Shown here piece by piece: positions 31,715 through 41,543 of a stretch of DNA of 64,000 nt. The stretch is taken from contig CAVSSM010000011.1 in the NCBI GenBank assembly GCA_963730605.1, positions 32,001 through 96,000 on the forward strand, read 5' to 3'. This DNA is from an uncultured Chlamydiae bacterium (GTDB taxonomy: Bacteria > Chlamydiota > Chlamydiia > Chlamydiales > SM23-39). Below the pieces are notes generated by a model, which saw only the letters and a program-made list of their open reading frames with translations, made no database searches and was not told the DNA's origin. The translations under genes were made by a program, and so were the position numbers. Within the stretch, counting starts at the first letter, position 1; each line of letters starts with the position of its first letter.

Positions 31715-32557
31715 TGCTCCTCCTATCGCCCAGGAGCTGAAATTTATCTCCTCGACGACAAGTTCCAAATGGTGCCAAAAGGAGAGATCTTTATCTCTGC
31801 GATGGGCTCGCTTTAGGGTATTTGAACCAGCCCGATTTAACAAAAGAGAGATTTTTCTCCCTTCCTCTTCAAGGAAAATCAATCCGGATCTACAGAACCG
31901 GAGATTATGCGCGCCTCTTGCCAGAGGGAGAGCTTGAATATTTGGGACGAATTGATACCCAAGTCAAAATCCGGGGATTCCGGATTGAACTTGGCGAGGT
32001 CGAAGAGAGTCTGAAACAGTACGATTCAATCCATGAGGTTGCGGCTCTTATCAAAGAAAAGCAGTTATACCGAATAATCGCCTATTATACGGGAGATCGA
32101 GAAATTGAACCGGGGAAATTGAAAAGAGTTTCTCTCTCTTTGGTTCCCCTCTGCAGCTGTTCCTTCCCATTTTGTTTATCTGGAGAGGTTCTCGAGGACG
32201 CCAAATGGAAAAATAGACAGGTCTACTCTTCCCGCTCTATTCCCCCCTTCTTCTGCAGAGTCTGATCTTCCTCAAGGAGAGACGGAAACGTCGATCGCTC
32301 TCATTTGGAACAAGGTTCTAGAAAAGAATGTCGGAGTGAATAAAAATTTCTTCGAGGCAGGAGGCGATTCAATGAGTTTGGCCGCCTTACAAACGGCGTT
32401 GTCTCTCCAACTGCAAATCAATATTTCGATGATCGACCTATTGCAGTATCCCACGGTCCGAAGGTTTGCAGCGCATCTCGATGAACCAGAAAAAATGGCT
32501 TTGCCTCAGGACAAGAGAAAAACAGTTTCTCTATTTAGAGCAAGGTTCAAGAAATGA
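31715..32557 (+). pseudogene. NRPS remnant (C-terminal half of adenylation domain plus carrier domain)
   Basis: YRTGD, GRIDTQVKIRGFRIELGEVE and NFFEAGGDS motifs in shifted frames. Confidence 0.85.
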
Positions 32558-34493: not shown

Positions 34494-35498
34494 ATGCTTA
34501 TCAAAATTAAAAAATCAGCTCATGCTGACGATATCCAGATCATTCGCCAATTGTTGGACCGCCACAATTTAGGACATCGCGTCATTGGAGAGACACTCAT
34601 TGGAGTGGAGTCGAATCCATCCGAGGAAGTCACGCGCGAACTCAATACTCTGCGTGCTGTCGAAAACGCAACGCCGATCGCCTCGCCCTATAAATTGGCG
34701 AGCCTTGCGGCCCATCCGGAAAAAACAGTGATCCGCATCGGCGATGTCGAAATAGGCGGCAAGGCTGTCGTCTTGATGGCCGGGCCTTGCGCTATCGAAA
34801 GCCAGGAGCAGCTCGAAGCGGTGGCCGAAGGGTTGAAAGGAACCGGCGTTTCGGTCCTGCGCGCCTCCGCGTACAAACCGCGCACTTCTCCCTACAGTTT
34901 CCAAGGGATGGGTGAAGAGGGATTGAAGCTCCATGCAAAAGCAAAGTCCAAGCACGGCCTTCTCATCGAAACGGAAGTGATGGATATAAGAGACGTGGCT
35001 CTTGTGGCCTCCCACGTAGATATCATCCGGATCGGGGCGCGAAACATGCAGAATTTCGATCTTTTGAAAGCGGTCGGAAAATGTGGAAAGCCGGTCATTT
35101 TGAAGCGGGGCATGTCGGCCACGATCGAAGAGTGGCTCATGAGCGCCGAGTACATCATCGCCCACGGCAATCCCGATGTGATTTTGTGCGAGCGGGGCAT
35201 CCGGACCTTCGAGAACGCAACGCGAAGCACCTTGGATCTCAGCAGCATTCCGGTTTTGAAGAGCCTCACCCACTTGCCTGTGATCGTAGATCCGAGCCAC
35301 GCCGCAGGGCGCAAGGATTTGATCCCGGCGCTCTCTTGCGCGGCGATCGCCGCTGGGGCGGACGGGCTTCTCGTCGAGGTTCATGCGAATCCGAAAAAAG
35401 CCAAATGCGATGGAAAACAGGCCCTTTTACCGTATGAATGGGCCGAGCTAGTTGCGCAACTTAGAAAAGTCGCGATTGCAATGGGGAGGTCGATGTGA
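34494..35498 (+). CDS. aroF: DAHP synthase class I-beta
   Basis: AGPCAIES, KPRTSPYSFQG, IGARNMQNF and DPSH motifs. Confidence 0.93.
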   Translation: MLIKIKKSAHADDIQIIRQLLDRHNLGHRVIGETLIGVESNPSEEVTRELNTLRAVENATPIASPYKLASLAAHPEKTVIRIGDVEIGGKAVVLMAGPCAIESQEQLEAVAEGLKGTGVSVLRASAYKPRTSPYSFQGMGEEGLKLHAKAKSKHGLLIETEVMDIRDVALVASHVDIIRIGARNMQNFDLLKAVGKCGKPVILKRGMSATIEEWLMSAEYIIAHGNPDVILCERGIRTFENATRSTLDLSSIPVLKSLTHLPVIVDPSHAAGRKDLIPALSCAAIAAGADGLLVEVHANPKKAKCDGKQALLPYEWAELVAQLRKVAIAMGRSM

Positions 35499-35767
35499 AA
35501 CTCGACGATTTGAGAAAAGAGATCGATGCGCTCAACCGCGAGCTCGTAGAGCTGTTAGGGAAAAGGATCGAGGTGGCCCGCAAGGTTGTCAGGATCAAAA
35601 AGGAAGGGCAGCTTCCCATCTTGGATGTAGATCGGGAACAGGAGATTAAGGATGAGATGCGCCAGCTTGCAAGGGCAAGCCGGATCAGCGCATCTTTTAT
35701 CGAAGAGATTTTCGATTTGCTTCTCGAATACACCCGTCTTGAAATGGAAATGGAGGCGGCAAAATGA
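35495..35767 (+). CDS. Chorismate mutase (AroQ type)
   Basis: LDDLRKEIDALN...KR...K...DREQE pattern. Confidence 0.88.
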   Translation: MKLDDLRKEIDALNRELVELLGKRIEVARKVVRIKKEGQLPILDVDREQEIKDEMRQLARASRISASFIEEIFDLLLEYTRLEMEMEAAK

Positions 35768-37341
35768 TGAAGATCGGCATCATCGGATCGGGACTCATGG
35801 GAGGGTCTCTTCAAAAAGGGATCGCCAATGGAATCGCCAAGGGAATCGATGGGGTTTTGCTCGAGGGCGATTGGATCGAAAAGATCGAAGAGATCGACAT
35901 TTTGATTTTGGCTACTCCGATCACCGCCATTTTGGAAATCGCTGAAAAAATTGCAAAGCGGCGAGCTCGAAAAAAACTTCTTGTCCTCGATATCGGAAGC
36001 GTCAAGAAGAGGATTACGGAAACATTCGAAAAACTGACAGACGGCTTTGTTAAATTTCTTGGGAGCCATCCAATGGCAGGCACAGAAAAAAGCGGATACG
36101 AAAACAGCGACCCCAAGATTTTTCAGGGAGCCGTCTGGGTGATCACGCCTCATAACAAGAACACTGAAGGCTCAATGACAGTGGCCGAAGAGTTGATCCG
36201 CAGCCTTGGCGCAAAGCCGATGCGGATGGATGCGGCGGAGCACGACCGGCGGGCCGCGATCATCTCTCAACTCCCTTATCTCATTTCAAAGACGCTTTTC
36301 GATTTTGTCGATCCCGAAAGCCTTGCAATGGCGGGGCCGGGGTTCAAGTCAATGATTCGGCTCGCCGCCGATAATTTGGAAATGCGAAGAGAACTCGGCC
36401 GCTACAACCGAGAGAATATTGCACATTGCCTGAAACAGTATATTGACTCATTAACAAATTTGCTAGGATCTGAAATGCAGGAAGCGAAGCGAACGGAATG
36501 CGATCCTGCTTCAGGATCGCCAAAGAACTACAGTTTCCGGAGGAATCCTATGAAGAAAATCGCATATCAAGGGGTCCCAGGATCATATAGCCATATGACG
36601 GCGCTTCGCCTCTTTGGGACCGAGGCTGCTTTCTTGGGGCTTTCCCAATTTTCGGACGTGATCGAAGCCGTTGAAAAGGGATCTGCAGACGCCGCCCTTC
36701 TTGCCATCGAGAACACGCTCATCGGGCCGATCTATGAGGTGCTGGATTTAATTGGGGAAAGCACGTTGGAGATCAATGGGGAGACGCCGACGCGGATCGA
36801 ACATTGCCTTCTGACTCTTCCGGATGCGGAGATCGAAGAGATCCGAACCGTTTATTCTCATCCGAAGGCGTTGGGGCAATGCCTGAAGTTTTTCCGCAAA
36901 CACCCTAACCTCCTCCCTGAAGCCTATGTCGATACGGCAGCCGCTGCCGGCTTTGTCGCGAAAAAGAAAGATCCAAGTGCGGCCGCGATCGCAAGCAGGA
37001 TGGCGGGATCGATCCATGGGCTCAAAGTGTGCTTGGCGAACATCGAAGACAACCCCGAAAATTTCACCCGCTTTCTCTTGCTTTCGACAAAACCCTCAGA
37101 GGGTCCGAAATGCACGATCCGGATCACTTTGGAACATAAGCCCGGAAAGCTCGCGGAGATCCTTTCGGTCATTTCCAAGGAGGGGGTCAATGTCACCTCC
37201 ATCATCTCTCGCCCCCTCATCGGCCGTCCGTTCGAATACGCTTTTTACCTCGATCTCGAAACGCCGAGCGTGTCCCTCCTCGAAGAGATCAAGGGAAAAT
37301 CCAAAACCTTCCGGAACTTAGGCCGCTACGGTGCATTATGA
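35764..37341 (+). CDS. Prephenate dehydrogenase (TyrA) fused to prephenate dehydratase-ACT (PheA)
   Basis: GSGLMGGS, DIGSVK and HPMAG; then IAYQGVPGSYS, IENT, SHPKALGQC and NFTRF; internal ATG with GGAGG at 36550. Confidence 0.85.
   Translation: MMKIGIIGSGLMGGSLQKGIANGIAKGIDGVLLEGDWIEKIEEIDILILATPITAILEIAEKIAKRRARKKLLVLDIGSVKKRITETFEKLTDGFVKFLGSHPMAGTEKSGYENSDPKIFQGAVWVITPHNKNTEGSMTVAEELIRSLGAKPMRMDAAEHDRRAAIISQLPYLISKTLFDFVDPESLAMAGPGFKSMIRLAADNLEMRRELGRYNRENIAHCLKQYIDSLTNLLGSEMQEAKRTECDPASGSPKNYSFRRNPMKKIAYQGVPGSYSHMTALRLFGTEAAFLGLSQFSDVIEAVEKGSADAALLAIENTLIGPIYEVLDLIGESTLEINGETPTRIEHCLLTLPDAEIEEIRTVYSHPKALGQCLKFFRKHPNLLPEAYVDTAAAAGFVAKKKDPSAAAIASRMAGSIHGLKVCLANIEDNPENFTRFLLLSTKPSEGPKCTIRITLEHKPGKLAEILSVISKEGVNVTSIISRPLIGRPFEYAFYLDLETPSVSLLEEIKGKSKTFRNLGRYGAL
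36464..36550. mobile_element. 87-bp palindromic element forming the TyrA-PheA linker
   Basis: TAGGAT...ATCCTA ends; perfect internal hairpin GCGATCCTG-CTT-CAGGATCGC; GAAGCGAAGCGAA motif shared with 51084-51250. Confidence 0.65.
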
Positions 37342-38459
37342 GAACGTTCAATCCATCCGCGACAAACGCGGTCAACGCCGAGATGAACCGCTTGCGCAAA
37401 TCGGGGGTGCGTATCTACAATTTCGGGTCGGGCGATCCGGTCGTTCCGAACCATCCGGCTGTCTTGAAAGAGGTCGAAAAAGCGGTTAAGGAACAGATAA
37501 GCCCTTATGCTCCTGTCGGAGGCCTTCTCGAGCTCCGCGAGGCGGCGGCGGAATGGATGAATTGCCGTTACGGCAGCCATTTCGGGGTCGATCAGACGAT
37601 CGTTACCTGCGGAGGGAAATTCGCTCTCTTTGCCGCCCTCGAGGTACTCTTGAATCCGGGAGAAGAGGTTCTGTTCGCGGCGCCTTACTGGCCCTCCTAC
37701 CCTGACATCGTACGGCTTGCCGGAGGCATTCCAAAGCCGATCGTCCTCGACGAAAAAACAGATTGGAAAATCACTCCGGAGGATATAAAGCGTCATGCTG
37801 GAAAAAAAACAGCCGTGTTTCTTTTCAATAATGGATGCAATCCGACCGGCGCTCTCTATTCAAAAGAGGAGGTCGCCGCCCTTCTCAAAGCCGCTAATCA
37901 GGCGGGGCTTTATGTGGTCGCAGATGAGGTCTACAGCGAAATGGTTTACGATGGCGCGAAATATGTTTCATGCGCCGCCTTTGCCGAATATGGCTCTCGC
38001 ACCGTGATCATCGAAAGCTGTTCGAAGAATTTCGCGATGGCCGGATACAGAGTGGGTTTTGCGTTCGCAGGCCACGAGATCATTAAGAACATGATCGCCG
38101 TCCAAAGCCAGTCGACGACCGGAACTTCCCACATCAGCCAACGGGCGGCGCTCGCTGCTCTTCGCCACTCAAGAGAGGCCGCGGCGCTTGTGCAGGGTGC
38201 GATGGACCGGAGGCGGAAGCTCTTTTTCCGCACCTATAACGAGCTTTTCGGCACCTCGTATAAGCCCCCCGCATCCACCCTCTATTTCTTCGTGAAAATC
38301 AAGGGGACCTGCGAGGAGATTCTCAAAAGGGCCCATGTCGCCTTAGTGCCGGGCAGCGCGTTCGGGCTCGATGGCTATGCCCGCTTTGCCTTTTCGGAGA
38401 GCGAAGAGGATATCGTTCTTGGACTGAAAGCGTTTAAAGCTTTTGAAGAGCGAGCGTAA
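37338..38459 (+). CDS. Class I/II PLP aminotransferase (aspartate/aromatic)
   Basis: NPTG, DEVY and SCSKNFAMAGYRVG motifs. Confidence 0.9.
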   Translation: MRTFNPSATNAVNAEMNRLRKSGVRIYNFGSGDPVVPNHPAVLKEVEKAVKEQISPYAPVGGLLELREAAAEWMNCRYGSHFGVDQTIVTCGGKFALFAALEVLLNPGEEVLFAAPYWPSYPDIVRLAGGIPKPIVLDEKTDWKITPEDIKRHAGKKTAVFLFNNGCNPTGALYSKEEVAALLKAANQAGLYVVADEVYSEMVYDGAKYVSCAAFAEYGSRTVIIESCSKNFAMAGYRVGFAFAGHEIIKNMIAVQSQSTTGTSHISQRAALAALRHSREAAALVQGAMDRRRKLFFRTYNELFGTSYKPPASTLYFFVKIKGTCEEILKRAHVALVPGSAFGLDGYARFAFSESEEDIVLGLKAFKAFEERA

Positions 38460-39581: not shown

Positions 39582-40604
39582 ATGCCCCAAGAGATGCAAA
39601 ATATCTTAGTTCGAATGCCCAACTGGATCGGGGATCTCGTCATGGGAACGCCGGTCTTGACCGACCTACGCGCCGCTTTCCCAAAAGCATCCATTACCGC
39701 CATGTGCAGGACGCCGATCTCTGAGCTTTTGGTGAAAGACGCTGCGATCGATGAGCTCTTTTGTTTCACTCCCCCGGCCAACAAATTCCTCCGCCGCGAA
39801 GAGCAGCGCAATATCATCGCGAAGATCCTAACGGGAAAATTCGATACGGCCATCCTGCTCACGAATTCGTTTTCCTCGGCCTGGTGGTGTTGGCAGGGAA
39901 AAGTAGCAAGGAGGATCGGCTATTCGGCCCATTTGCGGAGGATTTTTCTCACCGACCCCATCCGTTGGCCAAAACAAAAAATGCATCAGGTCGACCTCTA
40001 TAAAAGGCTCCTTGAGCCGCTTGGGATCCCTCGTTCCGACACTGCGCCGCGGCTCTATGTCACAAAAGAGGAAGTCGATGGATCCAAGCAGCTCCTTTTC
40101 CAAAGAGGTTACATGGCAGGAAAAAGGCTGATCGGGATCAACCCGGGCGCATCTTACGGCTCGGCCAAATGCTGGCCGCCTGAGAGGTTTCGCGCGCTCG
40201 CATTGGAGCTCTTAAAGGAAGGCTATGTCGTCTTTTTCGGCGACGCGTCGACATTTACGCTCGTACGCGAGATTTGCCAGAGGCTTCCCGAACAGACAAT
40301 CAACTTGGCCGGCATCACGTCGCTTCGAGAGCTCGCGTGCATCATCAAAGATTGCGATCTTCTCGTGACAAACGATAGCGGTCCGATGCATATCGCTGCG
40401 GCGTTCGATACTCCACTTATCGCCCTGTTCGGGTCAACGGATGAGGAAGCGACCGGCCCCTATGGGAAACCGGACGCCGTGATCAATAAGCATGCGGACT
40501 GCGCCCCTTGTTTCAAGCGGACCTGCCCGATCGATTTCCGCTGCATGAAGAAGATCACCGTGGAAGAGGTGGCTGAAAAAGCGCGGGAACTATTGCGTGT
40601 TTAG
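39582..40604 (+). CDS. waaF: GT9 glycosyltransferase, heptosyltransferase II-like
   Basis: PNWIGDLVM, NPGASYGSAKCWP and TNDSGPMHIAAA motifs. Confidence 0.85.
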   Translation: MPQEMQNILVRMPNWIGDLVMGTPVLTDLRAAFPKASITAMCRTPISELLVKDAAIDELFCFTPPANKFLRREEQRNIIAKILTGKFDTAILLTNSFSSAWWCWQGKVARRIGYSAHLRRIFLTDPIRWPKQKMHQVDLYKRLLEPLGIPRSDTAPRLYVTKEEVDGSKQLLFQRGYMAGKRLIGINPGASYGSAKCWPPERFRALALELLKEGYVVFFGDASTFTLVREICQRLPEQTINLAGITSLRELACIIKDCDLLVTNDSGPMHIAAAFDTPLIALFGSTDEEATGPYGKPDAVINKHADCAPCFKRTCPIDFRCMKKITVEEVAEKARELLRV

Positions 40605-41543
40605 GACGCTTACCCGCCGCATTTTTCCCAACCCTCTTGATTGGATGCTCAAGAGAGCGGCGAAAAAAAAGAGCAAAAGTTTCCTTCTTGGGTGGAACCG
40701 GGGCCTTGGCGATATAGCCCTCGGCTTATACGCGATTGTCCATCGGATCCGCGAACGAATCCCCAATGCGGAAATCACTTTCTTGACTCGAGAGAATTTG
40801 CTAGACGGTTTCACGATGCTAGGGGATGTCCGCATCTTAGCGGCTCCTGACTGGAAGCGAGGCAAAGTGCAATCGATTCGAGAGACGCTCAAGAAGATGG
40901 GCATCGACCCGAAGAGTTTCGATCTGATCATAGAGTGGCCAAGCCCCACCGATTGGGTCGCATGGCAAGAGGGAACCTCATCCCGAAACTGAAATGGGAC
41001 CCCCTCCATGACGATCTTTGGAAATCGTTCGATTTGCCAGACAGCTATACGTATATCTGCGTTCAGCCTGTCACCGAAACCAACTACGGCCTTTGGCGCA
41101 ATTGGCCGCTTGCAAGGTGGCAGGATCTCTTCGAGCGGCTCGAGAAGATAGGAAGCGTCAAGGTGCTCCTTTTCGGATTCGGCGCGGGTCCAGACTTTCC
41201 TTATAAGAATGTGATCGATCTGAGAGGAAAGACAACTCTTTTTCAACTCCTCTCGATTGTTAAAAACCGATGCAAAGCTGCGATCCTGCCCGATTCAGGG
41301 ATTCTCTCGATGATCTACTATCTCGATGCTCCCTTTCCCATCCAAATCGTCTCCCTTTGGGCCGATCCCAATCACGGCATCTTGAAGCAGGGCGTCCCGT
41401 CTCCCAACAGAAAGCTGCAGCATTTCCCCCTGATCGGGGGAGAACCGGGATCTCTTATCCCTATCCGCAAAAAAAGTGCTCGACTGCATTTTTCCGGCAA
41501 GGCCCCTTCAAACATGTCCAAATGCCGAGAGGTTTACTCTTAA
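40597..41543 (+). CDS. Second GT9-like glycosyltransferase, frameshifted near 40970
   Basis: RGLGDI in the first frame; RNWP, DLRGKTTL and DSG in the second. Confidence 0.65.

Follow-up and report, generated by a model that had tools for sequence, protein, structure and literature searches.

The origin of a gene fusion, and of the linker within it, is usually inferred long after the traces of the event have vanished. The tyrA/pheA locus of the uncultured chlamydial genome G000 raises the question of how two neighbouring genes came to be read as one. We analysed this locus within a window of 64,000 nucleotides (the whole stretch of DNA studied here, to which all positions below refer unless a contig is named), in which the operon order is aroF-aroQ-tyrA-pheA-aminotransferase.

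TyrA and PheA share a single reading frame

The operon begins with an aroF-type DAHP synthase gene (34494..35498, + strand), followed by the chorismate mutase gene aroQ (35495..35767, +), which overlaps its neighbours by 4 nt on each side; both were assigned by profile matches. Downstream of these lie one open frame of 525 codons (35764-37341, +) and a class I/II aminotransferase gene (37338..38459, +; ORF and profile match) that overlaps pheA by 4 nt. An earlier reading made from the letters alone (hereafter the sequence-only reading) had described the tyrA and pheA frames as continuous and the other operon junctions as 4-bp overlaps, and both descriptions hold, with 4 nt shared at 35495, 35764 and 37338.

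ORF and profile searches gave the 525-aa product the order TyrA-linker-PheA-ACT, with matches to PDH_N, PDH_C and PDT and a sub-threshold match to ACT. Dehydrogenase and dehydratase domains, each with its conserved motifs, thus share the single frame. The tyrA part (prephenate dehydrogenase domains; 35764..36474, +) comprises residues 1-237 and ends in LLGSE, as delimited by profiles, relatives and alignment to solved structures. The pheA part (prephenate dehydratase plus ACT, 263 aa) occupies 36550..37341 (+) according to profile and solved-structure alignment. Both domains align over their full length to solved enzymes. Gene order varies across the family and differs from that of the window in most family genomes with this PheA; pheA stands ahead of tyrA in three genomes and is followed directly by the aminotransferase gene in four (loci L002, L003, L123, L124 and L127-L129).

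The junction is empty in relatives

This PheA is present in 11 of 103 family genomes, and the fused frame was found in G000, the genome of the window, only. The other ten have open frames of 104-327 aa, none of which is fused. In G003, from the same genus, the gene order is the same and PheA is 92% identical, and the two genes are unfused: tyrA ends LLGSEI*, its stop overlapping the pheA ATG. Two metagenome loci are also empty at tyrA/pheA, L035 with a 4-nt overlap and L036 with a short gap. The ancestor-type junctions are therefore empty and unfused, and the ATGA overlap that the sequence-only reading expected in sister genomes is kept in G003 and L035.

Measured against G003, whose junction is empty, the net insertion amounts to 73 nt (36476..36548, +). 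The sequence-only reading had instead proposed an 85-nt, TA-bounded insert within an 87-bp segment running from TAGGAT to ATCCTA. Positions 36464-36550 do span 87 nt with these ends, but the ends are not the boundaries of the insert. TAGGAT lies at the tyrA 3' end (36464..36469, +) and is found at the same place in all three empty junctions (G003, L035 and L036), so it is native and not an arm of the insert; judged by duplex energy, it probably served pheA ancestrally as a weak ribosome-binding site. Deleting 36466-36550, as had been suggested, does leave a TGA that overlaps the pheA ATG, but this TGA (36551-36553) ends the mini-frame of the repeat itself, and the real tyrA stop, as seen in G003, is four codons beyond the one then proposed. 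Neither a TA target nor terminal inverted repeats were found at the junction.

Two rival readings of the locus were considered. If a TA-targeted MITE with terminal inverted repeats had fused the genes in one step, the complementarity of TAGGAT and ATCCTA, their pairing in the RNA fold and the neat overlap left by the 85-nt deletion would be accounted for. However, such a 6-bp complement occurs in 5.4% of 20,000 random 20-mers from the window, and the presence of TAGGAT in every empty junction and in no other copy of the repeat, together with the net length of 73 nt, makes this origin extremely improbable. An error of sequencing or assembly at the left junction could also have produced the fused frame, in which case the cell would make separate TyrA and PheA with a repeat between their genes; we regard this as very unlikely. 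The assembly does contain frameshifted genes, as well as contig ends of foreign composition, among them the initial 16 kb of the contig that holds the window. Indels elsewhere in the assembly had been pointed out before, and split frames such as 40597-41543 bear this out. An independently assembled public contig (X1, record 3; depth 3.8), on the other hand, covers 36121-36588 with 0 differences and 0 gaps, reaching 38 letters past the pheA ATG, and protein record P0124, from a 10.6-kb contig, is the identical 525-aa protein; X1 and P0124 may both derive from the same source material as the window. Runs X2-X4 do not reach the junction, and no RNA run was among those listed as containing the stretch. 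Moreover, both the 7-nt loss and the 2-base change described below would need to be errors, and the window, which begins at C11:32001, lies outside the foreign-looking ends and has a host-like composition. The fused form has been seen in this lineage only (P0001 and P0124).

Apart from the locus itself, overlapping split frames at 40597-41543 and 31822-32557 of the window look like frameshifted genes or assembly indels. In G000, foreign 4-mer composition was seen at contig ends (C2:1-31400, C10 from ~56 kb and C11:1-16000), and at the C2 end a truncated IS110 gene adjoins a host-like gene. It is possible that these ends are chimeric joins or contamination.

The inserted DNA belongs to a repeat family

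At tyrA/pheA the repeat unit is 80 bp long (36470..36549, +; copy alignment), with a left direct repeat collapsed to CTGAA and the pheA ATGAA as its right repeat. Across copies, the unit, counted from one ATGAA to the next, measures 60-81 bp. G000 holds seven copies at four sites, and further copies occur in the family genomes G003, G072 and G001. A search for more copies of the 87-mer, proposed in the sequence-only reading, thus recovered the repeat but not the TAGGAT arm, which is absent from the other copies. A model search of 151 genomes of the order, six of them from the family, detected the repeat in G000 only, the other 150 being without it. A pattern scan of the genome collection gave seven stretches in two genomes, which by contig and position are the G003 and G072 sites. 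None of the 80 metagenome loci retained out of 236 contained the repeat, two repeat patterns gave 0 matches in viral contigs, and the linker peptide matched only within the window's own cluster, among proteins of 288-919 aa. Two Rfam matches (E 0.5-0.8) were far under the gathering scores and were put down to chance, as were repeat candidates in G024 (E 0.01), G050 (E 0.004) and G072 C10 and a 21-nt match on G000 C7.

Filled and empty sites are paired reciprocally between genomes, with a single ATGAA wherever the site is empty. For instance, two repeat sites of G003 are empty in G000, and the pepA/RluA-family junction of G000 (C1:87145-87449) carries four identical 77-bp units, while the junctions of all five relatives retrieved are empty. 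Tandem number differs as well between G000 and G003 (1 vs 2, 1 vs at least 3 and 4 vs 0).

At 10 of the 11 distinct sites, two of which are known as 3' halves only, the right-hand repeat lies on a start codon, and every copy points the same way as its gene. The remaining site, in G001, is an ATGAA within the last codons of a gene and not a start codon. According to a rough gene caller, which predicts 1928 genes and 76% coding sequence and hence over-counts intergenic sites, start codons make up ~12% of the tolerated ATGAA sites. Finding 10 of 11 on starts then has a P of ~6e-9 at the 12% share and of 7e-4 at a share of 40%, related sites not being independent. Since one site is off a start codon, the pattern may owe something, or even everything, to biased retention instead of true targeting of start codons. 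In its strong form, the repeat would have no preference for start codons and enter any ATGAA, the copies on start codons being the survivors. This would fit the G001 copy and the distribution of ATGAA sites, which lie mainly within genes (4575 of 6678). Intergenic non-start ATGAA, however, outnumber those on starts (1709 vs 250 by the same rough caller), yet none of the 11 sites is there, and every copy is co-oriented with its gene, so that we consider this form rather unlikely. It alters the targeting step alone and not the fusion.

Two further copies are of interest in themselves. At G072:C11 (L020), only the 3' end of the repeat is present, after a different hairpin that also begins behind ATGAA; this partial copy possibly represents a sister family. 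G000:C2:374415-374495 (L016:1500-1580) is a second coding case, with a unit of 75 bp (81 in G003, L012). Here ATA stands in place of the former start codon of the downstream gene, and the ATG of the repeat overlaps the upstream stop and would begin the predicted protein ahead of a hydrophobic leader. In G002, G005 and G006 this site has no repeat, and the two genes overlap by 4 nt.

We also looked at established element classes and at candidate mobilising enzymes. TA-targeting MITEs of the ERIC, RUP or Correia type do not fit, as the left arm is native and missing from the other copies and the flanks are ATGAA repeats instead of a TA duplication. Nor does REP/BIME: the aligned units have no GTAG or CGTC tag, the copy number is seven and not high, and the Y1 transposase matches in G000, G003, G002 and G001 (genomes 62-96% complete) are without the repeat in the fetched loci. 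No mobilising enzyme was found among the Y1, IS110 and GIY-YIG matches, none of which carries the repeat. The Y1 match in G000 belongs to a decayed IS605-type element whose ends are unrelated to the repeat, the IS110 match, which is truncated, comes from a contig end that looks foreign, and the frames with GIY-YIG matches are long, about as large as UvrC. The decayed IS605-type element (G000:C2:395500-396900, L122) consists of a tnpA remnant and a frameshifted tnpB, and the remnant shares its frame with the next gene downstream, which we take to be phosphoheptose-isomerase-like.

Mini-frame, hairpins and ribosome-binding motif

Units of 77 or 80 bp typically hold a mini-frame that opens at the left ATG and closes with a TGA sharing bases with the right ATG. 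Among 12 copies, the mini-frame is open to the stop at the right-hand repeat in five, including the tyrA/pheA copy, runs in frame into the gene in three, stops early in three and is shifted in one. At tyrA/pheA it spans 27 codons (36470..36553, +; copy comparison), its start degraded to CTG and its TGA overlapping the pheA ATG.

The perfect 9-bp hairpin and the GGAGG at the right end, both pointed out in the sequence-only reading, are present. The hairpin (36500..36520) has a stem that is constant among copies and a variable loop; its z score is -2.49, and 3 of 200 shuffles fold equally well. A second hairpin of 4 bp with a 3-nt loop (36535..36545), likewise defined by folding and copy alignment, overlaps the ribosome-binding-site-like motif. 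Both stems are invariant among 11 aligned copies, with no compensatory change, and so lend no support to an RNA over a DNA structure. A DNA hairpin with a GNA loop could conceivably play a role in mobility, which we mention as a lead only.

The GGAGG motif (36539..36543, +) stands 6 nt upstream of the pheA ATG at 36550. Its pairing with the 16S tail was calculated at -9.5 kcal/mol, compared to -4.0 kcal/mol in the two empty junctions tested, and in naked RNA it is predicted to be partly paired (unpaired probability 0.11-0.19 at 36539-36541). From these predictions, GGAGG possibly retains an internal pheA start that would yield free PheA.

A proposed route to the fusion

We propose that the repeat inserted at the stop/start overlap of tyrA and pheA, and that two later small changes removed both stops, so that the predicted product is a TyrA-PheA protein whose flexible linker has 25 residues, possibly accompanied by free PheA. 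This is probably what happened. The sequence-only reading is thereby upheld in that an insertion at the overlap of two coupled genes preceded the joining of their frames, but the 80-bp unit was insufficient by itself and two further changes were involved.

The filled and empty pairs at other sites suggest that the repeat enters at ATGAA and duplicates it. After insertion, its mini-frame would couple the upstream stop to the downstream start. An 80-bp unit between overlapping genes puts these genes out of frame, so they stay separate and coupled via the mini-frame. A manual comparison with either of the empty junctions, extended by the 5-nt duplication, shows the left junction to be without 7 nt that hold the tyrA stop; slippage between two short TGAAA repeats would be the simplest cause of this loss. 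With the 7 nt missing, tyrA is placed in the third frame of the repeat, which is the pheA frame. Codon 3 of this frame is TGA in 10 of 12 copies and GAA here (36481..36483, +; copy comparison). The change from TGA to GAA, permitting read-through, and the 7-nt loss would both be needed for fusion and could have come in either order, while GGAGG would preserve the internal start of pheA. Most likely the fusion is recent and tolerated.

At G001:C9 (L141), two decayed copies lie in the last codons of a gene, which now ends at the internal TGA of the repeat. The left junction is collapsed likewise, onto an upstream TGAAA. This shows a parallel, half-way state at another gene. In addition, protein P0123, whose PheA is 94% identical to that of G000, starts with the repeat peptide in frame, a Cys replacing the stop; the PheA tree leaves its placement unresolved.

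The predicted protein

The repeat-derived linker (36475..36549, +; 25 codons, residues 238-262) appears as a low-confidence coil in the structure model. The model, built from a seven-row alignment, has a mean pLDDT of 75.8 and a pTM of 0.51, with both domains folded and residues 233-261 at pLDDT <50. As a low score is to be expected where a stretch has no relatives, this result is no more than compatible with a flexible linker. Compared with G003, dN/dS was 0.26 for tyrA (232 codons), 0.16 for pheA (117) and 0.54 for aroQ (89), values that mostly reflect the time before the fusion. The ACT region of PheA reads ISRP vs ESRP in solved relatives, and TyrA reads SQLP vs SHFP in a solved relative and has a shortened N-terminal domain and C-terminal helix. 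Because these features of both proteins also occur in the unfused relatives, they predate the fusion; they may alter feedback.

The fusion might have been selected, in that read-through of the repeat stop arose twice here and that tethered prephenate-consuming enzymes, with free PheA beside them, tune the Tyr/Phe split. Of 12 copies, 10 retain the internal TGA, which was lost at this site in G000 (Glu) and in P0123 (Cys), two outcomes that require different base changes. Direct TyrA-PheA fusions also recur in unrelated lineages (6 of 11 proteins scanned), which indicates a workable architecture, and the TyrA of this clade stops at position 84 of the 102 of the PDH_C model, so that the repeat adds a spacer of a length similar to that of other fusions. 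However, P0123 is annotated as a protein of its own with 288 aa, in line with an unfused state, and another copy, G000 C2b, has lost the stop too. Selection seems quite improbable to us, and a tolerated fusion remains the reading that we prefer.

Discussion

Mycobacterial interspersed repetitive units (MIRU) are 40-100 bp long, insert at start codons and carry a frame coupled to the target gene at -4 spacing (PMC12548453, PMC3184786). As far as the sections of these papers on MIRU describe them, the repeat studied here resembles them in several respects. Its units of 60-81 bp fall within the same size range, and it has filled and empty orthologous sites and an internal inverted repeat. Filled sites have a short direct repeat that is single when the site is empty, here ATGAA, with the left copy collapsed at tyrA/pheA. 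Insertion is at the start codon at 10 of 11 sites, and a predicted mini-frame would be coupled downstream at -4 spacing in 5 of 12 copies, the one at tyrA/pheA included. By the same descriptions, MIRU differ in having a tetranucleotide repeat instead of the 5-nt ATGAA, and in their mycobacterial host and 40-50 copies, compared to seven copies in what is likely an environmental chlamydia. Coupling is described there as preserved, whereas here the flanking genes were joined.

The tandem copy number of MIRU-VNTR loci is variable, as is that of the repeat in G000 and G003. Regarding the host, G000 gave a chlamydial Hc1 match (E 2e-15; the control also matched in 1 of 14 genomes), and a Chlam_OMP6 search gave no match, its control being silent too. 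We file the repeat as MIRU-like by design, an analogy that would rest on description rather than on sequence homology.

Other small repeats share single traits with it, so far as the reports describe them. Rickettsia palindromic elements and other MITEs are small palindromic repeats whose open frame can become part of a conserved protein (PMC2229807, PMC3184786, PMC3733652). The open frame of a palindromic repeat enters a protein in both cases, but the elements described there are inserted into a single gene or at its end, most of them with TA ends and terminal inverted repeats; here neither feature is seen, and two separate enzyme genes are linked. Neisseria REP2 and the Borrelia IR are also located directly upstream of genes and carry a ribosome-binding site, an ATG and two stem loops, while the account of them in PMC3184786 describes neither an ATGAA duplication nor a coupling mini-frame.

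The architecture of the fusion has precedents as well. In Archaeoglobus fulgidus, TyrA, AroQ, PheA and ACT are on one chain, according to the part of the report that concerns this protein (PMC1173090). Direct TyrA-PheA fusions with no chorismate mutase match were seen in 6 of 11 proteins picked from the best 150 matches (P0125, P0127, P0131, P0133, P0144 and P0188). They have dehydrogenase and dehydratase on one chain in the same order as the fusion described here, but with 27-34% identity, unrelated linkers and no sign of a common origin. In contrast to these, the unfused state and the source of the linker are visible at tyrA/pheA of G000. In the literature searched (mostly open-access, main texts), we found no described case in which such a repeat had joined the bacterial enzyme genes on either side of it. 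The design of the element and the architecture of the fusion are each known; the traceable route between them is new.

It is tempting to see repeats at start codons as a ready route from coupling to fusion. They would supply a linker in the downstream frame and a new ribosome-binding site, and two small slips would then give a fusion together with the free enzyme. The stop would have been lost twice at tyrA/pheA because the fusion was favoured, and the repeat at a second site would form the N-terminus of an exported protein. Taken as a whole, we consider this extension unlikely.

With the empty junction, the donor repeat family, the half-way state in G001 and the stop-free P0123 all in view, one can retrace the path that leads from coupled genes to a two-enzyme chain. 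With this repeat, the MIRU design is also seen beyond the mycobacteria. Judged from the sequence, the locus is likely a recent natural case, in one lineage, of mobile DNA building a two-enzyme fusion at the level of the predicted protein. This suggests that MIRU-type loci elsewhere might hold similar joins.
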